A program made the translations under genes and the position numbers. A model generated the notes under the pieces. It did no database searches. It had not been told where the DNA came from and saw only the letters and a list, made by a program, of their open reading frames with translations. DNA of 59,227 nt, filler included, from Sphacelaria rigidula (Eukaryota), in NCBI GenBank assembly GCA_964200075.2. It is 5 parts of 5 records of this genome, joined end to end, with 100 filler letters (N's around TTAATTAATTAA, not from the genome) between each part and the next. Parts side by side here need not be neighbours in the genome. Positions count along the whole stretch, not along the records: positions 11,867 to 23,632 come from CAXNAA020004531.1; 4 more parts are not named here. The stretch is one strand, 5' to 3'. Below are positions 9,255 to 53,846 of this stretch, piece by piece; within the stretch, counting starts at the first letter, position 1, and the number at the start of each line of letters is the position of its first letter.

Positions 9255-10835
9255 GGCGAGCGTCGCCTCGGAACAGTTTTACAGGCTAACAGTCCGGAGA
9301 CATTTGGGGGTTTCCGGTGGGCGGGTGGGGGCGGGTGGGGGGAAAGATTCTATCTGCAGAGCAGCCAAAAAGCTCACCAAGTCAACCTTGTGTCTGTGGA
9401 AGTTTCCCGCTGCAAATTAGGGGCCGTGCACGAGACCCGAGAGGCGCAGAATGACCACTCTGACCAATTGCGGTTGTCAAAATGAGCATGTAGTTCCCCT
9501 ACAGATGGACTACTTCGCTATCCACTGGCATATCTCATTTTGGTCATGGTAATTCCACCATAGATTACATGGGTACGAATAACTTCTTTGTACTCTGCTC
9601 GAGGTCTATGCCGCCTGTCTGACGGCTCATGTGTTGCCAGCATAGCCTCACACTGTCTGCAGTGTTTTTGTTGAACACTAAGCAGAGGTATCAACAGCAT
9701 GCAGCAAATTGTGTCCAGTCGAGAGCGATGGCGCACTTATACTGTCTCTTGCCGTTGTATCCAGCGAAGACATACAGTACGCATACATTTTGACCCTGGA
9801 CGCAATCGAAGGCAGGGACCATTTTGCTCAGGGGTTCTCCGGGACTATTCTCTACGTAGATGCCCAGACCCACATGTTTATGAAAAAGGCGTTTTGTGAA
9901 GCGGGAAAAGAGCAGGTTTGAACCCCAAGTGCGACACAGTCCAATATAGTCCACCTGCGGGGGGGGTCGCTGGCTAAGGGTTAAGGGAACCAAAAACAAC
10001 GAGCGAACAGCAGAGGAAGCGTCCAAACGCGGCATTTTGATTGGTCGCCGCGATATCACGCGGCGGGGTGATATCGCCGCGCCCAGTCAATATCATGCTT
10101 TCGGTCGCTTGCGTGGCGATTCGTTCTTATTTTGGTCCCTTCTCAATCCTTCGACAGCGAGCGTCGCCTCGACAACAGTTTCACGGGCTGCCAGTCCAGG
10201 AACATCCAGGGGGCGAGGGGGTGGTTTTCGACATGATGGGGCCTGTGAGCAGAATGGCCGCAAAAATCACCAAGTCAACCATGTGTGTTTGGGCCGTTCC
10301 GACGGAAAATTTTCAGCCAGGGACGAGACCCGAAAGGAGCGGGGTGACCACTCTGACCGATCACGGCTATCAAAGTTGTCACCTTGTTTCTCTTCAGGTG
10401 GACTACTTCGATGTCTAGCCGTTTCTCTCATTTCGGTCACGACAATTCAACCATAGATTACTTGGTCATAAAACAATGTGCTTCTCAATCTACTCGTGGT
10501 CTGTGCCATCTGCCTGACCCCTCTTGTGTTGCCACCGTTGCTCCACACTGTGTAGTGTTGTTACCGAACGGTAAGCAGAGATGTTAGCAGCATGCCGAAG
10601 GCTGTTTTGTTCAGTGGAGGGCAATGGATTGCTGACTGTTTTTTGTGCCGTTGTATCCAGCGAAGACATGCAGCACACATACTGACTCTGCACGCAAATT
10701 GGCTGCAGGTTCACAACCGGTCAGGGGTTCTCTGGAACTATTTTTTCTATAAGGATGGCCAACATCCGCATGTTCATGAAAGATGGCGTTGTGTGTATCA
10801 AGAGGAGAGTTGTTTTGAACCCCAAATGTGGCATG
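9255..10835 (+). repeat. Diverged direct duplication (~9255-9940 and ~10158-10835)
   Basis: Shared collinear blocks cgagcgtcgcctcg, caccaagtcaacc, gccgttgtatccagcgaagacat and tttgaacccca at ~900-bp offset. Confidence 0.8.
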
Positions 10836-11766: not shown

Positions 11767-11866
11767 NNNNNNNNNNNNNNNNNNNNNNNNNNNNNNNNNN
11801 NNNNNNNNNNTTAATTAATTAANNNNNNNNNNNNNNNNNNNNNNNNNNNNNNNNNNNNNNNNNNNN
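11767..11866. other. Artificial contig spacer
   Basis: 44 N + TTAATTAATTAA + 44 N. Confidence 0.99.
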
Positions 11867-12719
11867 ACCTTGGCTGTCGATCTCATTCAGCGTGGCGGCG
11901 GAAGCCGCCGAACCCCTTGTATATATATATATATATAGATGCTGGCCGCATCAAGGAGTTGAAATTCACCACAGGTATATAATCACATTGATTTCTCGAG
12001 AACATGCTGCTCCCGCAAGTGTGTCGGTACAGGCTGGTTCACGGGAAAAAAACAAAAAACACTCATCGGCAAACCTTCACGCCGTTTTAACCCTTTGGGA
12101 ACCCTCCCCTCCCGTCCCCGTTCCAGACGCCTCATTATTTCAAGTGCTGACAGAGAAGAAAATATGAAACAAGAAAATACCGACGACAACCATTCTTATG
12201 CCGGAAGGCCACAGAGGAATCCACCGAAATACGTCACGCTTGCACCAAAAATGTCGTCCCGGTGCGGTCGGGTCATTTTTCACTCAATGAGGGGACGCAG
12301 CCAAAAACCAGCAACGAGGCCCTCTGGACTACAGATTACAAAAATCAGCCCCTCCACTCTATTTTCTAGTCACTTCGTCCCGTGTGCGACTGCGGCACAG
12401 ATTTATAACGGTGCCACACCCACCGTAGTGCTGCTGTGCTGCAGTCCGGAGTTCGCACCCGCTCAACACTTGTCAAGCGCGCTAGGGAACATGACAAAAA
12501 CAACGCAGTATGGCCGAGCACACAGATATCCCCTCACCAGACGTAAAAGGAATGAGCTGCGATGTTTACGCGATCCATCGCCAGTTAGAAGCGGTTGCGG
12601 AAACGCAAGGGAAGGCCGCAGCGAGGGTTTTTGCAGAGCAGGCTGCAAGAGCCGTGGGGGCAGCGCATTGGCCCCCGACGCACACATGACCCCCCCGACA
12701 GCTCCCGGATGCCATCAAC

Positions 12720-13394
12720 TTGGATGCCGCTAAGGAAAATGCATTCAGACACTCGGGCCTGTGTGGAAAACACCAGGCGGCCATAATTGCGGCTTTGCGA
12801 ACGGAGGACATCGAGAAAAACGGAAAGGAACCCACCGGAACAGCCTATCGCAATCAGGTGCGGAGAATTGTACTCCACTATGGTCGGTACATGCAATTGG
12901 GTAGAGTACAGCGTCGCGATGTGGCTTTAGTCTAACCTGTGGTGTAACACCCTCACATTGCAGAAGAGCGTAGCCCATGAGGACAGACGGTACACACGAT
13001 AGCGCCGGCCAGCTTGATCGATCATACGCAGCACGGGGCATGTCTTGGCAACCGTAATGAATGATGAACCCGTACTGTACACAAGTGAAACCGTCAAAAT
13101 GCAAAACAGGAAGTGCTGTACAAACGGTACTGTACTGTGCATGCCGTGAGACATCAGTCAAGTAGCTATTCTCGTGCACGGAACCACTACAGAGCAGAAG
13201 GGTAGCACCCCTGGCCGGGTGTAAAAGCGACCAGCTCTATGTGCCGCACACCGACGGTGAAATATTGTGGATATGCCGTATGGTTCGATCTGGTGGGACG
13301 ATCAATCTGCAGTGTACGGGCAGTGTTGCCGAAATGTACAGTGGAGACAGGTGAAATATATCATGCATACCCCCGATATAGAACAGCACCATAG
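12720..13394 (+). pseudogene. Small accessory gene remnant inside the piggyBac element, possibly P2RX7_C/KolX-like
   Basis: Coding-like 12720-12857 (..GLCGKHQAAIIAALR..GTAYRNQ then GT) and 13239-13394 (VKYCGYAVWFDLVGRSICSVRAVLPKCTVETGEIYHAYP), which resembles the Y..Y...R..LPxC.V..I...YP motif. Confidence 0.3.
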
Positions 13395-14169
13395 CACCCC
13401 AGCGGCTCCCGCGAGTGGTCGCCTCTTGCTGGAACACACTGACAGATACACCGACATTGCATGACCTTGGGAATACACCGTGCGTGTCGCCGTTGTTGTT
13501 GTAACTATTGCGCAGGCGTGTTTCGATGCAGCCAAAAGCATCAACTTCCGAGGAAGGGGGGTACAACTGCGTCGAGAGGAATGCTTTACGTAGGCTTGCC
13601 GTGCACTCTGACCGGGGGGGAGCCTATGAGCGCCGTCATTCAGCATGCGTTCATGTAGGAAAAATATAGTCACTACTGCGGCTGACGGAGTAGTTTTGAA
13701 TTCAGAATGAGGAACAGTGCACTTGCCAGTGGTGATAGACCACAGCGGCGTTAGAATTTAGCGTGTCTTTGTTCCCTAGCGCATGAGTGAAGTCCTGCGC
13801 AGGAACATGCACGTAGGAAGGGAAACTAAGCCTGCAGCGTCTCACGGCGGGCGGGTGTGTATGTGCTAGATTTACTGCATGATCTGGGATGAGAAAGGCC
13901 CCCACCGGCGGAGCGAGTGGTTGAAGATATGACGTACATGAAGACGAACGTAGGTGACAGGGAGGCGTGGGAGGACGGGCGGTAGGGGGAGGCGGGAAGC
14001 ATGTGTCGTTCAAGTATGTGACCCCATTATCGTGCATGGATACGGGCGTGAGTGTACGGTATGCTTAGGGTAAGGAAAGGGGAGTCACTGGTGCTACATA
14101 TTCAACACGGGAAGCACCGCATGATTCAACAGTTCATGGCGTGATGTCACCAGACATGTTATCTGATGG

Positions 14170-14335
14170 TGCAGCCCCGTTGTATTCATTGTTTCCAGCA
14201 CTTTTCCACCTTGCATCGAATCGTGCAGCGAGCGCACGACCTCATATACTGTTTTTGGTGTTTGCGTTTTTATTTGGCCGGGATGTTGACGCTGGCACCG
14301 GTGGCCGCCAAAAAGCAGACCAACGTGCACCATGA
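14170..14335 (-). pseudogene. Remnant of the piggyBac C-terminal cysteine-rich domain
   Basis: WCTLVC...(TPKTVYE in the adjacent frame)...CARCTIRCKVEKCWKQ*, with stops and frameshift; correct strand and position for the transposase C-terminus. Confidence 0.4.
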
Positions 14336-14347
14336 AAGGCTTCACCC

Positions 14348-15539
14348 CATAAGACTTGAAATATTGTGATGACAAAGGGCCATAAAAAATAACAACACGA
14401 CGAGTGGCATGTGCGGCAATCCGGCAACTCCAATCCCCGGTGGCCGCAATCACTCCGTACCCCAGTCCCGCACGAGTCACACAAAAATCAAAGTTGAATC
14501 CCCAAAATACATCACGGCGTGCGGCCGTACTGCCCCGGTGTGCTCGAGGGCATTTGTGACATCGAACACAGTGTAATCATCCTCAAAGATGAAAAACAAA
14601 ATGAAGAAATAATGAGAAACGCAATCAGCCGCCGACAGCACGCGGCGGCGATCACACATTCTTGCCATACCCGCCCCACCACCGTCACCGACCCCTCCGA
14701 AAACAATATACAAAAAACCGGCGACAGTCACGCCGTGCAACGGAAATCCACGTCGCGATAGTCACAAAAGCAGCCAACACCGCACGGCCGTTACCACATC
14801 ACGGTGGAGAGACAATGTCAATCGACCGCCGAAAAGTCACTATCCACGGGCGTGCCGCTCCCGCTCCTGTTGCCGACACCATGACGATACAACCCGGATG
14901 CGGTTCTACCGGGTAATACACAATCGGCCGCCGCAAGTCGACGCCGGCGACCGCACCCGTCGGCATACCGACACTGTTTCTATCGCCGACGGGGAAAGGA
15001 AGAACACATAATATCAGCGGCGGACACGTTTCTTCGTGGTCGCCCGCAAACACTGCTTGACTGCATGCGGGACGCGTCCTTCACGCTCGAAAGCAGCACA
15101 TAAGAGTTCAAATGTTGTGGTAATAAACGGCCGTGAAAAACAATAACACGACGAGTGGAATGTGCGGCAGGCCAACAACTCCAATCGCCGGTAGCCACAA
15201 TCACTCTGCAACCCAGTCCAGCCCGACTCACAAAAAAAAAAAAATGAATCTAAGATACATAACGGCGTGCGGCCGTGCCGCCCGGTGCACTCAAGGGCAT
15301 TTGCGACATGGAACACAGTATAATCATCCTCAAAAATGAAAGAAAAAATATGAAGGACACAATCGGCCGCCGACAGCACGCGGCGGCGATCACACATTCT
15401 TGGCATACCCGCTCCACCACCGTCCCCAAACCCTCCAGAAACTGTATACACAAAACTGGCGACAGTCACGCCGTGTAACGGAAATCCACGCCGCGATAGT
15501 CACAAAAGCAGCCAACACCGTACGGTCATTACCACATCA
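14348..15539. repeat. Two ~445-bp direct repeats (14348-14801, 15099-15539)
   Basis: Collinear from cataaga... to ...ttaccacatca, including the identical block cgccgacagcacgcggcggcgatcacacattctt. Confidence 0.9.
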
Positions 15540-15683
15540 TAAAAACAGCCGGTACACTCCATACCCGTACGCATGTCCCGACACGCCATCAGCCTGTGTT
15601 GAACCCCAAGACCCGACCGGCGGCTACGGCGCTCCCCCCACAACTGCCGCGGCGCTCCCGCCTCCATGGTCATGCCTACGCAC

Positions 15684-15810
15684 CTTTTCTCATGATCTCG
15701 GCACCTTGTGCCGGTCGTAATCGAATGTGTCGCTATTCTCGTTTTTGCTGCTTGCCGTCATGCGCGGTCGGTTTCTCCTCCGCGGTGCAAAAGTCGACGT
15801 AGTCATTCGT
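15684..15810 (-). pseudogene. piggyBac-like transposase exon (TNDYVDF...), frameshifted
   Basis: Pyrimidine-rich acceptor ...ttcttggcttgCAG, then TNDYVDFCTAEEK; after a 1-nt shift ..FDYDRHKVPRS*EK and donor GTGCGT. Splicing to the previous exon gives IDLIVKY|TNDY. Confidence 0.6.
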
Positions 15811-17316
15811 CTGCAAGCCAAGAACGGAAGCAGTGGCAAACAGGTGCGTGCCGCTTCGGTAATTTTCCCACGTGAAAACGGCGATCAATCCTAGTTGCCA
15901 TTACCAGCAAGAAAAATGTCCAGCACATCAACTTGTCCAGTCTCCAACCATAACCATAGAGTTTCAGTGTGAATAATATGATCACGTGCCAGTCCAACAC
16001 GTGCCCACGCAAACACTGGGTACCGCTATGATTCTTAGGCGTCATCGCGAGCGACCACGCGCGAATGCATTGGCCCGAAATACTGCATACTCTGCTTAGT
16101 TGTCATCTACCGCGATCTGAACCTTTCCCTTCCTCGGCGCGACTCCCCAACATGAAACAATGAGCCAATCTTATCCTGGTATACAGGACAGCGTTAGAAA
16201 AAAACGCTACCAGCAACGCAGTGTTTGTCGCCGTCAACACTCCGCGTCACAAGCACCCCGAGCTATACTCCGCGGTAGGTGATCTCTTCTCTATCCTGAG
16301 CCCGTTTGCGACAAATAATTGACCTAGTTCTCGACCAGGGATGATGCAATTCCTTGTGACATGAGAAAATTCAGCGATATTCGATAACAGTGGTGTACGA
16401 ATCGTGCCCGGTTGTCCAACACCGAGTACAAATTCGGAGAGATTCATTAGACCAAATTTTACGGCAACGAATCTCATTTCTTTGAGAGACCGGGATTTCT
16501 TGAAAATCAGGGGAACTTCACTTCGCGACCTCAAAATCAGGGGAACCGTTGCATGGCACAGACAGTAGCACAGACTTGTGAAACAGTTCTGTACGCAGAC
16601 AGTCGTTTCTGGCATAAGAGTCGCGTAGTCGTGCATGAAGCTGAAGAGCACGTGGGCAGCGGTATTCCTTCGAGTACAGCGTCGTACCGTTGTGCCCTAG
16701 GGTAATGCAGTGCAGGACACTCCATCAGTACACTACATGATAATAGTACATCATGGCACAGTCGGTATTGCGAGCGCAGTGAACAAACGGTGTGTGCGAA
16801 GAGTTCAGTACTGCAGTGCCAAACGTCACTCTGCAAGCACAGCGACAACAGAGAAGGAGAGTACAGTACAGTTCGTAATATTGATACATTTGGCAGCGCC
16901 GTGCAGCACAAAATATTACCATCGCCGCAGGACACAGCGTCAACACTTATTACTCGCTGCTCAAAACCCGAGCGAAGCTGCCTCAGCAGGTGGCGCGGGC
17001 AGGCACCACCTGCGGTATCACGATACTGCCTCTTGCTGCGGTGCCAAAGTACCAAATCCTCGTACCCTACCATTGTACGCCAATGCAAGCACGTCACCTA
17101 AAAAAAGGCGGGGGAAGTAACGATCTCGGAGCAATTTCACCCGTTTTCTTCCGAATAATCGGTGGAATTCCTTCGGAGATCGTGATACCCCGATTTTTTC
17201 TCCCCCGACTTGGTCAAAATCGGGGCCCATAAAAGGCGTTGCCGGATTCCCCCCCCCCCCCCACCGATGTAAAAAAAAAAGTCGAGATTGGTCACTGCCA
17301 CAAAAGACGGACTTAC

Positions 17317-17625
17317 ATATTTCACGATGAGATCAATGGCCTCCGGGGGAAACATGATGTCGAAAAATGAGAGCACGAGATCCTCCACGCTCCCTTCGAC
17401 CACGGCTTTATACCCCCCGCGGTCCACCTTCGGCAGGCGCTCCAGGAGTTTCTCCGACAGGATGAACTCCGCGCTCCGACGCCGCCCCGCTTCGCGCTTG
17501 GGATATGTCTCGTCTACTCTCAACCCCTCTGTGGTCCACTTCGCCGAACCCACACCAACAAAATCGCCATCAGGGTCCACGCTCCCGTCGCCGTCATCGT
17601 CGTCACGGTCATTGTCGGCGTCGCC
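17317..17625 (-). pseudogene. piggyBac-like transposase exon (acidic linker plus start of a DDE_Tnp_1_7-like region)
   Basis: 309-nt open phase-0 exon with CAG acceptor after ttctctttctccccc and GTAAGT donor; ends LSFFDIMFPPEAIDLIVKY. Confidence 0.7.
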
Positions 17626-19013
17626 CTGGTGGTGGCGGATAATGCGTGTGTCACGCACATGGGGGAGAAAGAGAATATCGATGATGGACTCGCCAACACT
17701 CGCGACAGAGTGCATCGGAACTGTACTCCCACCGCGTGCGATGGAAAACCCAACTCGTGCTGTATTGACTACATATACGCGCAAGTAATATACAATGCAC
17801 AATGCAAAGCTGCAGGTGGCCCAAGCCTTTTTCACGTCGCATTGGAAGCAAATAGAACAGGCGGTCCGGCGCTATCTGTACTTCATGTGGCCCTCACCTG
17901 TTTCACATCGTACTGCACGAAGCACGCACATACACGCACGCACACACTTAAGGCACGGTGCATGCAGATAGTGCGGACGACACCGGCTCCCGGTAATGCA
18001 CACAAGCGAATGGCAACTATCCACGAACTTCGCTGTGTTTCTGCGATCGCAACCTCGGCTTGCCCGTATAATGCTATCAAATTTTCTGACATAATTCCAC
18101 CTCAGCGTAAATATCATAGCGTTTCAGTAATTAGCACACAGCAGATCCGCGCTGGTTCAGTTTGTTTGCCCCAACCTGCACGCACCCCCCCTGCGTGTCT
18201 TGCCCCAATCACAGCACACGACTATAACTGAAGTACCAGAGTACACGCAGTAGACGATTTTCCCAACATTTCTTGGTTTGCACAGCACTTCGATCCCACC
18301 CCGAATCTGTGCAGACCGTTTGACTCGAGACGAAACAGCCAACACGCCATGGAGGTTTCAACAGCGTGTTGAGAGCACTGCATGCCGGCATCACATTATC
18401 TTTCATCGAGACGAACGGAATGACAATATACAGCAACTCAGCCATTCCTAGCGGGGATCACCGTCTCCACGAAGGCCTGAAGACGCCACAGCGCAACGAC
18501 AGCTACAGCACACGATACAGAGCATGAGTGTGTTTGCGTTGCAGCACAACGATACAGGACATGTCCCATTCGATAGTTCTTTTCCTGATCGCAGGTGGGT
18601 CCTCGATGTTGCCGAGTGGCGATTTTCAAAAGCTCGGCCATGATCGCGGTTCCCGCGCGAAAATATTCCAATTCACTGTGAATTACCCCTATCTGTGGGA
18701 GGGGAGTCGAAATGCTGGACAGCTGCAATGTTGTGGGCGAAACACTTTTCTATCACCGACAGCCGCCTGTCTGAAATACGTGAATGCTGTGGAACTAGTC
18801 ATTTGCCGATACTGATCACAGTATAAAACTGCCAATCTGATCGATGCTAGCATAACAAGTAAAGGTCTGAACACCACCGTCAACACCACAAGCGTAGAGT
18901 GGTGGGTGGATCTGTGTACCCGTTCGAAAATGGTACTGCTCCGGATAGTGTGTATTTCTCAACTGCTCCAAAAGTGGGGATGTATCGTTTTCGAGGTTTC
19001 TGCTAGTACAAAG

Positions 19014-20796
19014 CAAGGTTGTGTTCTGTAAGTTACGGGTACGTCCTGTAGGGTATGGGGTTCTTTAGAGAACTCATAGAACTGTCGGGTACCGGTATGA
19101 AACTCTTACAGAGTTTACAGAACTGTCGGGTACCGGTATGAAACTCTTATAGATTTTACAGAACTTGTCGGGTACGGTGAGGGAGGGTTACAGAAAACCG
19201 GTACCGGCATTCGGGTAACTCTTTAAGGGAATACCCGCCCCTTGGGTAAGAGTAAAGTTTTTGTAGAGAACGCACGGAAATGTCGGGTAAGGGTATGGGA
19301 GGTTACAGAACTCACCAAAACTGTCGGGTAGGGTATGAAGGTTGCACAGCAAACCCTACCCGCAGCCGGGTATATTATCAAGGGTATACCCGTGCCCCCC
19401 GGTCACGGTACGGGAGGCTTACAGAACTTACAGAACTATCGGGTAAGGGTATGAAAGTCTCACAGATATTATAGAACTGTCGGGTACCGGTATAAAAGTC
19501 TGACAGAAGTCCCAGAACTGTCGGGTACGGTAAATACCCGGCAAAATACCCCGGGTATATAGAATCCGTGCCCTACGAAACAAGACCTTGGTATCATCAT
19601 CACCCCTGTCGTGGGACCTACGCCACTACAACAGTGGCGAAATATATATGATAGTTCACGATAACTCTGAACGGCGTTCATGGGGTTGATAGAGAAAGAC
19701 TACACGAACAATCGCAGTAGTACATGTGCACGGGATCGTCAACATCTATCGGTTTCACGTACACTCCCAGAGAGTACATGAAGGAGCATTCACGACTGCC
19801 CGTTCTCTGGAAATCCTTCGGCACGCGACAAAGTCGCCGACGGCCTTGACGACTTTCGGTGGCATACTCCGCGCTGTACATGTCGACAACGGCCTCGGAA
19901 TTGATGACGACACAACCACCATCAACGTCGATGACGTGTGTCGTGCCACTTGATCCCCTAGTGGCGCAGATGAACCGCCCCCGCTCGAGCCACCACTCGA
20001 GTCTGGGGGTGATCCATCCTCACGGTCTGCAGGGCTGCTCATGTTTCGCGTTTCCACTCAGCGGTACGTCGTATCTCGTCAGATCCCACACTAAAGAACT
20101 TTTCAACATTGAATTGTTGTTGGTGTGCAGTTTTGAATGAAGGAGTTGGGTGGGTTGATCGATGGGGGGTACACGTTCAGGTCATGAGGTTGTGTTCCGA
20201 TTGAACCTATATCCGTACCTCCCCAAGGTATATACCTGTGCTCATACCTGCAATCGGGTATACTATAACGGTATGCCCCAACCCCAGGTAGGGGTAAGGG
20301 AGGCTTACAGAGCTCACAGAACTGTCGGGTACCGGTACCGGATGAAAGTCTTACAGAACTTACAGAGCTCGTCGGGTACGGTACGGGAGGCTTACAGAAA
20401 ACCGGTGCCGCCAATCGGGTATTTCTTCAAGAGCATACCCGCCCCTCGGGTTAGGGTAAAAATTCTGTACAGAACTCACAGAACTGTCGGGTAAGGGTAT
20501 GGGAGGCTTACAAAACTCACCGAAACGATCGGGTAGGGTATGGAGGTTGTACAGAAAACTGTACCTGCAATCAGGTATCTCGTCGAGAGCATACCCATGC
20601 CCCCCGGTAACGGTACGGGAGTCTTACAGAGATCACAGAACTATCGGGTAAGGGTATGGAAATCTTACAGAGATTACAGAACTGTCGGGTCCCTGTATGA
20701 AAGTCTTACAGAAGTCACAGAACTGTCGGGTACGGTAAATACTCGGCAAAATACCCCGGGTATACAGAAACCCGTACCCTACAGAACACAACTTTG
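19014..20796. mobile_element. hAT-like non-autonomous composite element nested in an intron
   Basis: TIR caaggttgtgttctgtaag ... acagaacacaactttg; arrays of acagaact(g)tcgggta / cgggta in 19014-19590 and 20185-20796; same layout as 52406-53618. Confidence 0.75.
19680..20057 (-). pseudogene. 5' fragment of a possible hAT transposase (BED-finger-like start)
   Basis: Frameshifted coding-like METRNMSSPADRED... then ..SFMYSLGVYVKPIDVDDPVHMYYC, lying inside the hAT-like ends. Confidence 0.3.
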
Positions 20797-20883
20797 CAAA
20801 ACTACGTCACAGATGTTCAAAGACATCAACCATGTAGAGAATACCCTACAACTGTATCGAATACTCGTATCCTTCCATCTCAC

Positions 20884-22160
20884 CTCCACCGGTGCGTTCG
20901 TCGGAGGCTCCATCCTGGCGACCGTCTTGCGTACTTCTTGGTACCGCTTCTCGGCAAATTTTGGTGCATACTTTAACACTGCCGCCCACGTCTTAGGGAT
21001 CGACGCCTGCCCCCCTTCCTCGTCCTCCCCGCCCTTCAACTCACCGTCAGACCCGTAGTACCGTTCGGCCTCTCCATCATCGGCGTCTTTACTGTCTGCC
21101 TCCTTCTTCTTTGGCCTTCGCTCACGTTCCAGTCCCAACCCGCCGACCCCCCAGTTCTTGTGCTTTCCACGAAGAACCGCGCCGGCCTTGCGACGGGCCG
21201 TGCATCGCTTCCCTTTCCGTGCGCCTCGCTCAAACACCGCTGTGCACGCCGTGCCTTCGGTATATTTCGCTTGTGGAGCCACGCCAGGGGAGAAGTGAGG
21301 CTGTGCAGGTAAAGACGGCGCGAGGAGAGGCATGTGCGGCATTGCCTCCACGTCGAGATCGTGCCGATACCGCCTGAGTTTCGGCAGCATCAACCCCTGT
21401 ACAGCGCCTCTGATCATTTTTGCCACTCGCGTTTCCGCCACACCATTTAGGAACAGTGCTGCAGTACCAGGTGCTGTTTGACGACCGCGGCTAACATCAT
21501 CTGTGGAACAGTACCTTACATCCACCCAGTGGTTCTTTTCATCCAGAAAGTAACGTTCATCCATGAACCCATTCGTACCGCTGTACAGTTGTACCGCATT
21601 TCCGCCATGATGTGGCTCCCACACCATAACATTCGCGTCCAAAACGGCACTGGCCGCTGCGAGTCATGGCATTTTCAGCCACAGACCCTCACATTCTGCC
21701 CCCCACTTCAGATGCCTCCTGAACCACCCGATGGTGCCCCTATCGACCACGATAGGCGGCTCGTGTTCGAACGTCTCCGTGAGAGAGAGGTTCCCCGCCA
21801 TATTTTGGCCGTTTCTTGTGATGACATGTCGGTCTTCATCTGCCTCCCCGTCACAGGTGTTGTACACTACAGTACCGCATATGGCTTGCACCATGTACTC
21901 GCATGCGCCCATCATCGGGCACCGGCGTAATGCGGCCTAGTGCTGCCGTCAGCAAAGACTCACGAGCGCAGTTTCCTAAAGGTGTTGTCGACAACTCGGT
22001 TGCCTCGCGGCTATGTTCTGCAAGCTCCGCAAAGCAGCTCCCGTCCTCATCGCGTACCGCGTTCACGATATCAGACCCACGTTTGGTATTCGGTGGTCCC
22101 GGAAATGCTGTACGTGCCACGTTTGTGGCCTTCATCTCTCCCTCGAGGATATCCATGCTT
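20884..22160 (-). pseudogene. OTU-like cysteine protease plus Cys/His finger exon, 5' part of the transposase gene
   Basis: Cys box TTPLGNCARESLL, middle motif GLWLKMP*LAAASAVLDANVMVW, His box YFLDEKNHWVDV, then CTAVFERGARKGKRC..VL(R)GKH. One frameshift (~21920) and one stop (21664-21666). Phase-0 donor GAG|GTGAGA at 20884. Confidence 0.6.
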
Positions 22161-22504
22161 CTGTGTGGATGGGCTGTATGGCTGCCTAGTTGGGTTGTGT
22201 TTGTGCTCAGGGAGCCATTTCGTACGAGACTGTAACCCACTATGTTTGTAGTTTGTCAGCACGCCTCCGCACATTTTGTTTACTTGCAGTGCTGAAAAAG
22301 ACCGATGGGTCGAACAAAAAACAACGTTCTTCGCCACCGTCGAAAATAGGCAACCTTCTTTTTTTCCGTGTTTTATTCGCGCGGGTCTGAAAAACACGCC
22401 CTGGGCAAAATAGTGCTGTGTGGGAGCTGAAAACTATCAACCATATGTCCTTCAAAACCAGCACCTCCAAATCAGCACTTTTTCCACTGCCAGTCCCAAA
22501 AGGG

Positions 22505-22770
22505 TTAAGGAGTTAGACCCTGAAAAATTACACAGGTGTTCTATGGGTCCTTACGCAACTTTGGAAGGACGAGTTTTTTTTTCACTTCTTGACTCTTTTC
22601 ACCGTTTTTCCGGGGTCACACTTTTGTCGGGAAAAATTCAGTCCAGTCGGACCCCCGTAAAACGGGAAAGAATAAAACCTCGTTCATAAAAAGTTGCGTA
22701 ATGATCCATAGAACAGCTGTGCAAAATTTCAGGGTCTAACTCCTTCGAACGGCGTGAAGGTTTTCGCGTT
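22505..22770. mobile_element. Inverted-repeat host element interrupted by the piggyBac insertion
   Basis: ggagttagaccctgaaaaattacacaggtgttctatgg is inverted relative to ccatagaacagctgtgcaaaatttcagggtctaactcc; the missing part of the arm sits at 12071-12090. Confidence 0.75.
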
Positions 22771-23507
22771 TGTGCGATGAACCTTGCCGTGCCACGGTGA
22801 AACGGCAAACTACTAGAGTTTGGTATAAAAATGGCGTCTCAGGGCATTTTTCGACGTGAACATGAAAATTCAAGCACCAGTTAATCGAGTTTGGCCACGA
22901 AACTTTGTGGGGTTCTTCCTTGGGTGTGCGGCGGCAGAGCGTTCGCGAAACAAATGAAAAAAAAATACTTGGATCCCGTCGGACCCCCGAAAAACGGTAA
23001 AAACAATTCCAGAAATAGAAAAACCTCGTTGATCGAAACTTGCGTGATGGTTCAAAGCACATTTGTGCAAAGTTTCAAAGTCTAACTCCTAATAAATGCG
23101 TCAAGATTGCGCGGATGTGCGTGCAAACTCCTCACTACTTGTTTTGAGTATGAAAACATATTTTAGGGTAAATTTTACGTCAAGGCAGGAAAAATTGTAT
23201 GATATTTCCGAGTTTCTCCACGAAAAATTGTACATGTGTTCCTTGGACCATCCTGGGACGCATCATGTTATTATTTTTCCTGTTTATTCATTCTGTACCG
23301 CCTGTCGGGGGTCTTTGTACTGAGACCCCCGGAAGCCGGTAGAGGACGGAGAAACTATGAACCCTTGCAAGAACACCAGGAACACAAGTTTTCCATTTGG
23401 CGCATCAATACCTACGGAACTGCCAAGTTTGAGGATGATCTGAGTTTTTCTACGACAGATATACGGGAAATCGTCACGAGGCTCTCCGAGTTTTTCCTGC
23501 GTATCAT

Positions 23508-23632
23508 GACTGCTGAAAGCGGAGGCGATGGAGGCCCTGCTATACGGATGCATGACATGGTCCCCACGTCGCGAACACTACGACTTGCTTCGAAAGGTGC
23601 ACTACCGACTCCTCCTGCGAGTCATCGGGTAC
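23508..23632 (+). mobile_element. RTE-type LINE reverse transcriptase fragment
   Basis: LLKAEAMEALLYGCMTWSPRREHYDLLRKVHYRLLLRVIG; homologous to 56720-56832 on the minus strand. Confidence 0.8.
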
Positions 23633-23732
23633 NNNNNNNNNNNNNNNNNNNNNNNNNNNNNNNNNNNNNNNNNNNNTTAATTAATTAANNNNNNNNNNNN
23701 NNNNNNNNNNNNNNNNNNNNNNNNNNNNNNNN
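23633..23732. other. Artificial contig spacer
   Basis: N run with TTAATTAATTAA. Confidence 0.99.
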
Positions 23733-35498: not shown

Positions 35499-35598
35499 NN
35501 NNNNNNNNNNNNNNNNNNNNNNNNNNNNNNNNNNNNNNNNNNTTAATTAATTAANNNNNNNNNNNNNNNNNNNNNNNNNNNNNNNNNNNNNNNNNNNN
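35499..35598. other. Artificial contig spacer
   Basis: N run with TTAATTAATTAA. Confidence 0.99.
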
Positions 35599-47363: not shown

Positions 47364-47463
47364 NNNNNNNNNNNNNNNNNNNNNNNNNNNNNNNNNNNNN
47401 NNNNNNNTTAATTAATTAANNNNNNNNNNNNNNNNNNNNNNNNNNNNNNNNNNNNNNNNNNNN
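47364..47463. other. Artificial contig spacer
   Basis: N run with TTAATTAATTAA. Confidence 0.99.
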
Positions 47464-52405: not shown

Positions 52406-53618
52406 CAAGATTGTGTTCTGTGAGGTACGGGTACGTTATGTAGGGTATGAGATTGCCATACAGACTTTACAGAACTGTCGGGTACCGGTATAAAAGTGTT
52501 CCAGACTTTACAGAACTTGTCGGGTGCGGTACGGGAGGCTTACAGAGAACCGGTATCGGCAGTCGGGTAACTCTTCTCGGGTATACCCGCCCCCCGGGTT
52601 CGGGTAAATGTATTGTACAGAACTTCCAGAACTATCGGGTACCGGTATAAAAGTGTTCCAGACTTTGCATAACTTTTCGGGCTCGGTATGGGGAGGCTTA
52701 CAGAGAACCGGTACCGGCAGTCGGGTACTCTTTTCGGGTATATCCGCCCTTCGGGTTCGGGTAAATGTATTGTACAGAACTTACAGAACTATCGGGTACC
52801 GGTATGAAAGTGTTACAGACTTTACAGAACTTATCGGGCTCGGTATGGGAGGCTTGAAGAGAACCGGTACCGGCAGTCGGGTACTCTTTTCGGGTATACC
52901 CGTCCTTCGGGTTCGGGTGAATGTATTGTACAGAACTCACAGAACTACCGAGTAAGGGCATGAAAGTCTTCCAGAGATTACAGAACTGTCGAGTACCGGT
53001 ATGAACGTCCTACAGAAGTCACAGAACTGTCGGATACGGCACATACCGGAAAAAATACCCCCGGGTATACAGAAAACCGTACCTTACATAGCACAACCTT
53101 GGTTTTTTTGTTTGGTGTGCTGAAATGAATGAGAGGGCAGGGTGTGTTGGCAGGAGCTGAGAGGTACATTTTGATTGAACCTACACCCACACTTCCAAAG
53201 GGTATATACCTGTGCTCGTACCTGCAACGGGGTATATCTGCAGGGTATGCAAGGGTATACCCTAACCCCGGGTAGGGGTATAGGAAGCTTACAGAACTTG
53301 AAGAACTATCGGGTACCGGTACGAAAGTGTTGCAGACTTCACAGAACTTGTCGTGCTCGGTATGGGAGGCTTACAGAGAACCGGTACCGGCGATCGGGTA
53401 ACTCTTTTCGGGTATACCCGCTCTTCGGGTTCGGGTAAATGTGTTGTACAAAACTTACAGAACTATCGGGTAAGGGTATGGAAGTCTTACAAAGATTACA
53501 GAACTGTCGGGTACCGGTATGAAAGTCCTACAGACGTCACGGAACTGTCGGATACGGTACACACGGGGAAAAATACCCCCGGTATACAGAAAACCGTACC
53601 TTACAAAACACAACCTTG
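52406..53618. mobile_element. hAT-like composite non-autonomous element with 8-bp TSD
   Basis: gagattat|caagattgtgttctg ... aaaacacaaccttg|gaaattac; inserted into a family-A palindrome that normally has that 8-mer once. Confidence 0.85.
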
Positions 53619-53846
53619 GAAATTACGGCCGTTCAGATCGGGAGTTCTGTTTTCCACCGCACGTTTTCCATCAATAACTAATGGGCTAATAAGGGCGTGT
53701 CTCGGCACTTTTTTCTTCGATCGTGAAAGTGCTGTCGAAAAGAAATTATCTCATCTGACAGGTGCACCGCATTTATGTTCCTCGAAGGCTTCAACTCAAA
53801 ATTATAATTGGCGGCGCGCGGTGAAGAATGCGACTAGTGAAAAAAC

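Follow-up and report, generated by a model that had tools for sequence, protein, structure and literature searches.

The window analysed here, a 59,227-nt stretch of Sphacelaria rigidula DNA (assembly GCA_964200075.2) made up of five pieces of 11,766 nt with spacers between them, contains a 10.4-kb block (12091-22504) that is probably an old copy of a moderately repeated family of large piggyBac-type cut-and-paste DNA transposons. Each spacer is made of 44 N, TTAATTAATTAA and a further 44 N (the N runs lie at 11767-11866, 23633-23732, 35499-35598 and 47364-47463); the pieces are not necessarily neighbours in the genome, and no feature is to be read across a spacer. The element, both of its junctions and the sister arm of the hairpin repeat that hosts it are all located within piece 2 (11867-23632), and hence the joined structure of the window leaves intact the argument of a first-pass annotation, which had described a piggyBac-type element with cargo from its two ends and its empty site. 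The boundaries and flanks of the element are as follows:

12028-12086: host hairpin, left portion of the arm that is interrupted; a very high-copy family (loose ends before 12028; contig depth)
12087-12090: left copy of the TTAA target-site duplication (direct reading; the sister arms have CGAA or ATTA there)
12091-12102, plus strand: left terminal inverted repeat, CCCTTTGGGAAC (direct reading; one occurrence in the window)
12091-22504: element body, 10,414 bp, and 10,422 bp if the two TTAA copies are counted (interrupted host repeat; contigs joining 12088 to 22508)
22493-22504, minus strand: right terminal inverted repeat, GTCCCAAAAGGG on the plus strand and CCCTTTTGGGAC on the minus strand (direct reading; one occurrence in the window)
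22505-22508: right copy of the TTAA target-site duplication (direct reading)
22509-22763: rest of the host hairpin, made up of what is left of the arm, the loop, and the sister arm, intact at 22671-22763 (inverted-repeat comparison; empty-site alignment)

The left junction (12071-12104) reads ...aaaccttcacgccgtt TTAA CCCTTTGGGAACCC... and the right junction (22490-22524) reads ...ccaGTCCCAAAAGGG TTAA ggagttagaccctgaa..., and the two flanking sequences, aaaccttcacgccgtt (12071-12086) and ggagttagaccctgaa (from 22509), adjoin in the sister arm (22763-22728) with CGAA at the site. The interrupted arm pairs with its sister perfectly to the left of the element (12071-12086 with 22748-22763, 16/16) and at 84% over 75 nt to its right (22507-22581 with 22671-22745). 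An empty site made in silico, with 12091-22508 removed, can be aligned across the junction to two uninterrupted arms in the window, viz., 22763-22507, with CGAA at the site, and 23108-22982, with ATTA. The element is thus inserted at a TTAA that is duplicated on its two sides, and the uninterrupted paralogous sites carry a single 4-mer at this position.

Contigs of four sequencing runs, aligned on piece 2 at 80% likeness, lead to the same boundaries (X1, X4 and X5 are DNA runs, while X6 is guessed to be RNA, none of the listed runs being recorded as such). Two contigs of X1, two of X4 and three of X5 join 12088 to 22508, which confirms the boundary to within a base. The depth of these bridging contigs is 115 in X1, 235 in X4 and 29.6 in X5 (where no identical-copy contig is listed for comparison), and that of the contigs identical to this copy is 12.9 in X1 (record 3) and 32.7 in X4 (record 10). 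Since the bridging contigs of X1 and X4 have several-fold the single-copy depth, they represent uninterrupted copies of the host repeat and not an empty allele or excision products of the element.

At its two ends the element has an inverted repeat of 12 nt, with an indel of one base (CCCTTT-GGGAAC compared with CCCTTTTGGGA-C). The string TTAACCC occurs seven times in the window, where 6.1 occurrences are expected, and this motif by itself would not suffice as evidence. However, what fixes the boundaries is the interrupted repeat, a criterion that does not draw on the TTAA or inverted-repeat motifs, and both the inverted ends and the duplication of 4 bp coincide exactly with them, so that chance is not a tenable explanation. 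A sub-terminal inverted motif shared by the two ends, AAGTGCTGA, is no better than those found in shuffled sequences. The window therefore bears out the first-pass annotation on the insertion, on its TTAA duplication of 4 bp, on the short inverted repeats (CCC...GGG) and on the empty site, and the annotated coordinate of 22504 is correct for the last base of the element, although not for the start of the right TTAA, which is at 22505-22508.

It is highly improbable that the block is something other than a transposon, namely a join made in assembly or a segmental insertion with TTAA on both sides by chance. Such a reading could draw on the concatenation of the window from five pieces and on the share of the element's sampled words that are present in the runs, which is only 0.56-0.58 in four runs and 0.22 in one. 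Against it, everything from the left junction to the sister arm falls inside a single piece, contigs identical to this copy are found in three runs (records 3, 10 and 27), and an exact 4-bp duplication together with inverted ends and a multi-copy interior would be unexpected from an artefact.

The interior of the element is itself a moderately repeated family. Over the 18 bins outside its high-copy parts, the median summed contig depth, which by the method's own warning is not equal to copy number, is ~305 in X1 and ~646 in X4, or ~20-25 times that of the identical-copy contigs. The contigs into which the family is collapsed (records 1, 5, 6, 7, 8, 11 and 12) are ~9-13% diverged from this copy; for example, record 8 of X4 has 61 differences over 584 nt and record 6 of X1 has 34 over 389. 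The two end bins of the element are alike in depth in all four runs (618 and 714; 1,496 and 1,733; 105 and 103; 416 and 358). Among the matches listed, two contigs of X6 follow the element to 22508 and then differ from this locus, and no loose end was found at 12091 among the listed matches of the run contigs. Exact 22-nt patterns of either end gave no match in metagenome contigs. These data place the element in a multi-copy family, and agree with the earlier description of a lineage that is large even without its nested DNA.

piggyBac is probably the superfamily to which the element belongs, judging from its ends, its target and its match to the literature. Classical piggyBac members are ~2.5 kb in length with a single open reading frame (ORF), and the present element, at four times this length, contains introns and has no detectable transposase. 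It shares with the classical members, such as insect piggyBac and Daphnia Pokey (PMC3849761), the TTAA duplication, the short inverted repeats starting with CCC and the occurrence of non-autonomous derivatives. A size far above the typical one and the presence of extra genes also have a precedent in Teratorn of medaka, a 180-kb element of the piggyBac superfamily (PMC5601938), although the cargo of Teratorn is a herpesvirus genome, while here it consists of nested repeats and lineage-restricted genes.

The first-pass annotation had defined piggyBac by TTAA targets and short inverted repeats starting with CCC; TTAA alone is not diagnostic, given that Kolobok elements also make a TTAA-specific 4-bp duplication (PMC9587614). 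It is conceivable, though quite improbable, that the element belongs, as a non-autonomous member, to a different superfamily that duplicates TTAA (Kolobok or Sola-3-like), a reading to which the lack of a piggyBac transposase in this copy would lend itself and which has a parallel in the Ectocarpus transposable element library, where the TTAA-flanked non-autonomous families DNA4-N1 and DNA4-N2 are marked 'possible Kolobok or Sola-3?' (PMC12477816). The termini distinguish between the two. Kolobok termini are of the form 5'-RR...YY-3', unlike those of piggyBac (PMC9587614), and besides the four piggyBac families of the Ectocarpus library, its other, doubtful TTAA families start with GGGGG or GGGCG (PMC12477816). 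The element described here has 5'-CC...GG-3' termini (CCCTTTGGGAAC and CCCTTTTGGGAC, with CCC at the 5' end), and it starts with CCCTT and ends with AAGGG, the signature noted for the Ectocarpus family PiggyBac-1_Ec32 (PMC12477816). Moreover, the Pfam scans detailed below yielded neither a THAP domain nor any other that is associated with Kolobok. The original assignment to the piggyBac type accordingly holds as the best-fitting one, on the basis of TTAA and the 5'-CC...GG-3' ends taken together.

The element carries fragments of genes on both strands, which, together with its longest open frame, are located as follows:

12858-13515, plus strand: candidate intron, 658 nt, CAG/GT ... pyrimidine tract ... 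CAG/G (X6 joint)
15721-15810, minus strand: minus-strand gene, exon B, TNDYVDFCTAEEK..., in which the TAG at 15733-15735 is in frame (tblastn of P0002; sequence reading)
15811-17316, minus strand: intron of the minus-strand gene, 1,506 nt, GTAAGT ... cttccgttcttggcttgcag (P0002 alignment; splice sites read)
17317-17553, minus strand: exon A of the minus-strand gene, ending ...IVKY before the GTAAGT donor (tblastn of P0001, P0002 and P0005; donor read)
20782-21663, minus strand: longest open frame, 294 amino acids, with no sign of being a gene (no Pfam match, no homologue)

The minus-strand gene was traced through a 244-amino-acid open frame (17140-17871), which has five matches in a library of 1.84 billion proteins. 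Three of these are short true relatives, P0001 (E-value 1e-20), P0002 and P0005, and the remaining two, P0003 and P0004, are long repetitive proteins; no longer homologues of the frame were found. Using tblastn, the relatives align to the region of exon A with identities of 54% over 81 amino acids for P0001 (E-value 9e-23), 88% for P0002 and 43% for P0005. P0002, a 68-residue database fragment, joins 17430-17317 directly to 15810-15721. The splice sites on the minus strand are in register with this joint, with GTAAGT following ...AAA TAT at 17316 and a pyrimidine tract and CAG preceding ACG AAT at 15810. Thus, 15811-17316 is a canonical intron, backed by a database protein, and a high-copy repeat lies within it. 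Both P0001 and P0005 continue into this intron at the same point, and the exon junction is retained in these relatives even though they are only 43-54% identical. The in-frame TAG of exon B stands where P0002 has a leucine.

On the plus strand, one contig of X6 (depth 394) joins 12854 to 13513, annotated as 'GT..AG (cut +3)', and no contig of X1, X4 or X5 does so. The plus-strand intron near the left end and the minus-strand intron further to the right are oriented as in convergent units, an arrangement that fits the 'tail-to-tail' genes published for PiggyBac-1_Ec32. The element was thus correctly called intron-containing, with two canonical GT..AG introns, the one on the plus strand being seen in X6 alone. 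The claim that it is multi-gene fared less well, for it comes down to gene fragments, and no transposase or other match in Pfam or among the sequences of the Protein Data Bank (PDB) was found in this copy. Neither of the intron-bearing units could be identified as a transposase. The three relatives have no relevant Pfam match at E-values up to 10, P0002 has no match among PDB sequences, and a protein atlas returned nothing above 0.78; the minus-strand gene is therefore treated as having no assigned function. The junction ...IVKY/TNDY... was considered as a candidate start of the piggyBac transposase core, but this was rejected as evidence, no search having supported it. For the 294-amino-acid frame, no homologue was found at near or shorter lengths.

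Searches for a transposase covered the element in several ways. No Pfam family was found for the 64 ORFs of at least 80 amino acids on both strands at E-values up to 0.01, or for the six full frames, with stops read as X, at E-values up to 1. Among ORFs of at least 30 amino acids, the 53 on the minus strand of 12091-17900 gave seven weak matches below the cut-off at E-values up to 10, and 133 others gave 25 such matches at E-values up to 1, with no transposase family in either set. These 133 were scanned out of 177, the 44 omitted ORFs being those in or overlapping the nested repeat (18949-21055), which are still covered by the six-frame scan and, if at least 80 amino acids long, by the 64-ORF scan as well. 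The six frames did not match any PDB chain sequence at E-values up to 1. As it stands, this copy is non-autonomous and decayed, and its membership of the superfamily rests on its ends, its target site and the literature description. This negative result applies to this copy, and non-autonomous members are by definition without a transposase.

It appears improbable that the element is autonomous, with a transposase that is present here but distributed over numerous short exons and diverged beyond the reach of Pfam and PDB searches of raw frames. Two canonical introns do occur in the element, and the published 9,969-bp relative, PiggyBac-1_Ec32, is annotated as autonomous (PMC12477816). On the other hand, the piggyBac transposase family PF13843 had no match even at E-values up to 10 in the 53 minus-strand ORFs, or up to 1 in the 133 ORFs and the six frames, and none of the six frames matched a PDB sequence. 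The published transposase could be recognized by blastp to the Repbase piggyBac Pokey1_HM (PMC12477816), so a comparable one should be detectable here. Furthermore, the best-supported gene has an in-frame stop, and the unique DNA between the two gene remnants amounts to only ~1.4 kb.

The closest known system to the non-autonomous piggyBac-type copy favoured here is PiggyBac-1_Ec32 itself, which is 9,969 bp long with CCCTT-AAGGG termini, 13-bp inverted repeats and a TTAA duplication; it contains two tail-to-tail spliced genes, one for the transposase and the other an 'Ectocarpus-specific' gene, and is present in 75 copies that occupy 434,803 bp (PMC12477816). The element described here resembles it in its TTAA duplication, its CCCTT...AAGGG ends, its inverted repeats of about the same length (12 nt and an indel), its size of ~10 kb and its apparent possession of spliced genes on both strands, including a lineage-specific one, and both families appear to number in the tens of copies (75 as published, compared with a depth excess of ~20-25-fold here). 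They differ in that the published family has a transposase recognizable by blastp and this copy has none that is detectable, and in that nested DNA (1.8 kb or more) and a duplication of 0.75 kb are part of the 10.4 kb of this copy. The lineage proposed by the first-pass annotation (large, multi-gene, intron-containing) is real in outline, and was already published for a brown alga in 2025.

Several points weigh against the placement as an old copy of a large piggyBac family. The terminal inverted repeat is imperfect, and no similarity between the ends beyond its 12 nt rises above that of shuffled sequences (the best local score of 18 was matched by 177 of 500 shuffles). The piggyBac transposase domain PF13843 (DDE_Tnp_1_7) was not detected in this copy, while the transposase genes of Ectocarpus are intron-rich and poorly conserved, which hampers translated searches (PMC12477816). 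The sole direct sign of other copies with both ends at a different TTAA is the pair of X6 contigs that leave the locus at 22508. The agreement with PiggyBac-1_Ec32 is one of descriptions, and extends to the termini, the length of the inverted repeats, the target, the size class, the way in which the genes are arranged and, roughly, the abundance. Lastly, only ~6.7 kb of family sequence is left once the nested and duplicated DNA is subtracted, compared with the 9,969 bp of PiggyBac-1_Ec32, and this copy may be a deletion derivative or belong to a different family.

The element was inserted into a TTAA within one arm of the high-copy hairpin repeat, with duplication of the TTAA. Its 12-nt CCCTTT...AAAGGG inverted ends would be the sites at which a transposase of the piggyBac family binds and cuts. 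A recognizable transposase gene was either lost from this copy or never part of it, and its movement would have depended on an autonomous relative acting in trans. After the insertion it acquired at least the nested transposon at 19013-20797, probably two more, the 0.75-kb duplication and the in-frame stop, and its gene fragments are the remnants of spliced, lineage-restricted genes to which no function is assigned. The in-frame TAG of exon B, the nested repeats, the internal duplication and the ~10% difference from the family contigs are all signs of decay and suggest an old age for this copy.

With both ends, the duplication and an empty paralogous site visible in one short stretch, the locus is a clean worked example, and the element can be used to anchor the annotation of its family in the source genome. 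What it adds to the biology is little, as the curation of large, intron-rich, two-gene piggyBac elements of brown algae was published in 2025, and piggyBac derivatives of far greater size have been described. One thread worth following is the conserved gene that travels with the family. Several giant families of Ectocarpus contain only non-transposase genes (PMC12477816). It may be speculated that the large piggyBac lineage of brown algae includes members without a transposase, which spread while carrying genes that are expressed, spliced and restricted to the lineage, as Pack-MULEs do, with the minus-strand gene perhaps serving as an accessory factor and not as dead cargo; at present we regard this as unlikely.

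The host repeat can also be delineated from the contigs. The hairpin comprises 12028-12086 and 22509-22790, with arms of ~90 nt, and a related copy is located at ~22982-23121. Its contig depth is a thousand-fold or more above single copy: the bin at 12028-12086 has a summed depth of 13,410 in X1 and 48,765 in X4, compared with ~13 and ~33 for the identical-copy contigs, and the values for the host repeat across runs range from 13,000 to 115,000. Loose ends before 12028, which agree poorly with one another (127 contigs in X1, 45 in X5 and 22 in X6), mark the host repeat's own mobile boundary. The hairpin is probably a MITE (miniature inverted-repeat transposable element) family.

The following repeats and rearrangements are located within the element:

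14343-15539: internal tandem duplication with a period of ~0.74-0.75 kb, 14343-14801 compared with 15094-15539, 80-88% alike (repeat comparison)
16583-16975: high-copy repeat, at bin resolution only, probably a nested insertion (summed depth)
18155-18940: second high-copy stretch, at bin resolution only (summed depth)
19013-20797: nested repeat, its inverted ends 28 nt long, containing arrays of a 41-nt unit (ends 89% complementary; period 41)

The repeat at 19013-20797 has a relative in piece 5 (52406-53622), and the two constitute one high-copy family that is made largely of 41-nt tandem units. In record 11 of X4 (depth 599), 18915 is connected to 20797 through 92 other letters and the nested repeat is skipped, so that this insertion is absent from other members of the element family. 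Loose ends behind 20796 are seen in 160 contigs of X1, 174 of X4 and 50 of X5, and their consensus starts with the same eight letters in the three runs, which suggests that other copies of the nested repeat extend slightly further than 20796. The nested DNA of ~1.8 kb had been ascribed to a hAT element. The nested repeat is real, but its identity as hAT could not be verified: hAT elements make an 8-bp target-site duplication and have a hAT transposase or dimerization domain; no such duplication is found around the repeat, the flanks of which (GTACAAAG and CAAAACTA) differ, nor is there any Pfam domain within it in the six frames or in ORFs of at least 80 amino acids.

The two other high-copy stretches are probably nested as well. 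The summed depth of 16583-16975 is 9,902 in X1 and 11,841 in X4, compared with a few hundred in the neighbouring bins, and that of 18155-18940 is 5,186 and 2,247 in X1 and 9,225 and 4,816 in X4; an inverted-repeat search for the ends of these two stretches gave nothing convincing. The region of the tandem duplication (14343-15539) varies between copies of the family, and contigs of other copies join 14603 to 14920 with eight other letters.

Two minor observations concern piece 1. A lone ...AAGGGTTAA (TTAACCCTTAGCCAGC on the minus strand) at 9969-9984 resembles a right end of the piggyBac type. The third TTAACCCTT of the window, at 9976-9984, was considered as an element end and rejected, as neither a partner end nor any similarity to the main element was found for it. 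The same piece contains a direct repeat of ~440 nt, the copies of which (9493-9931 and 10386-10828) are 70% identical.

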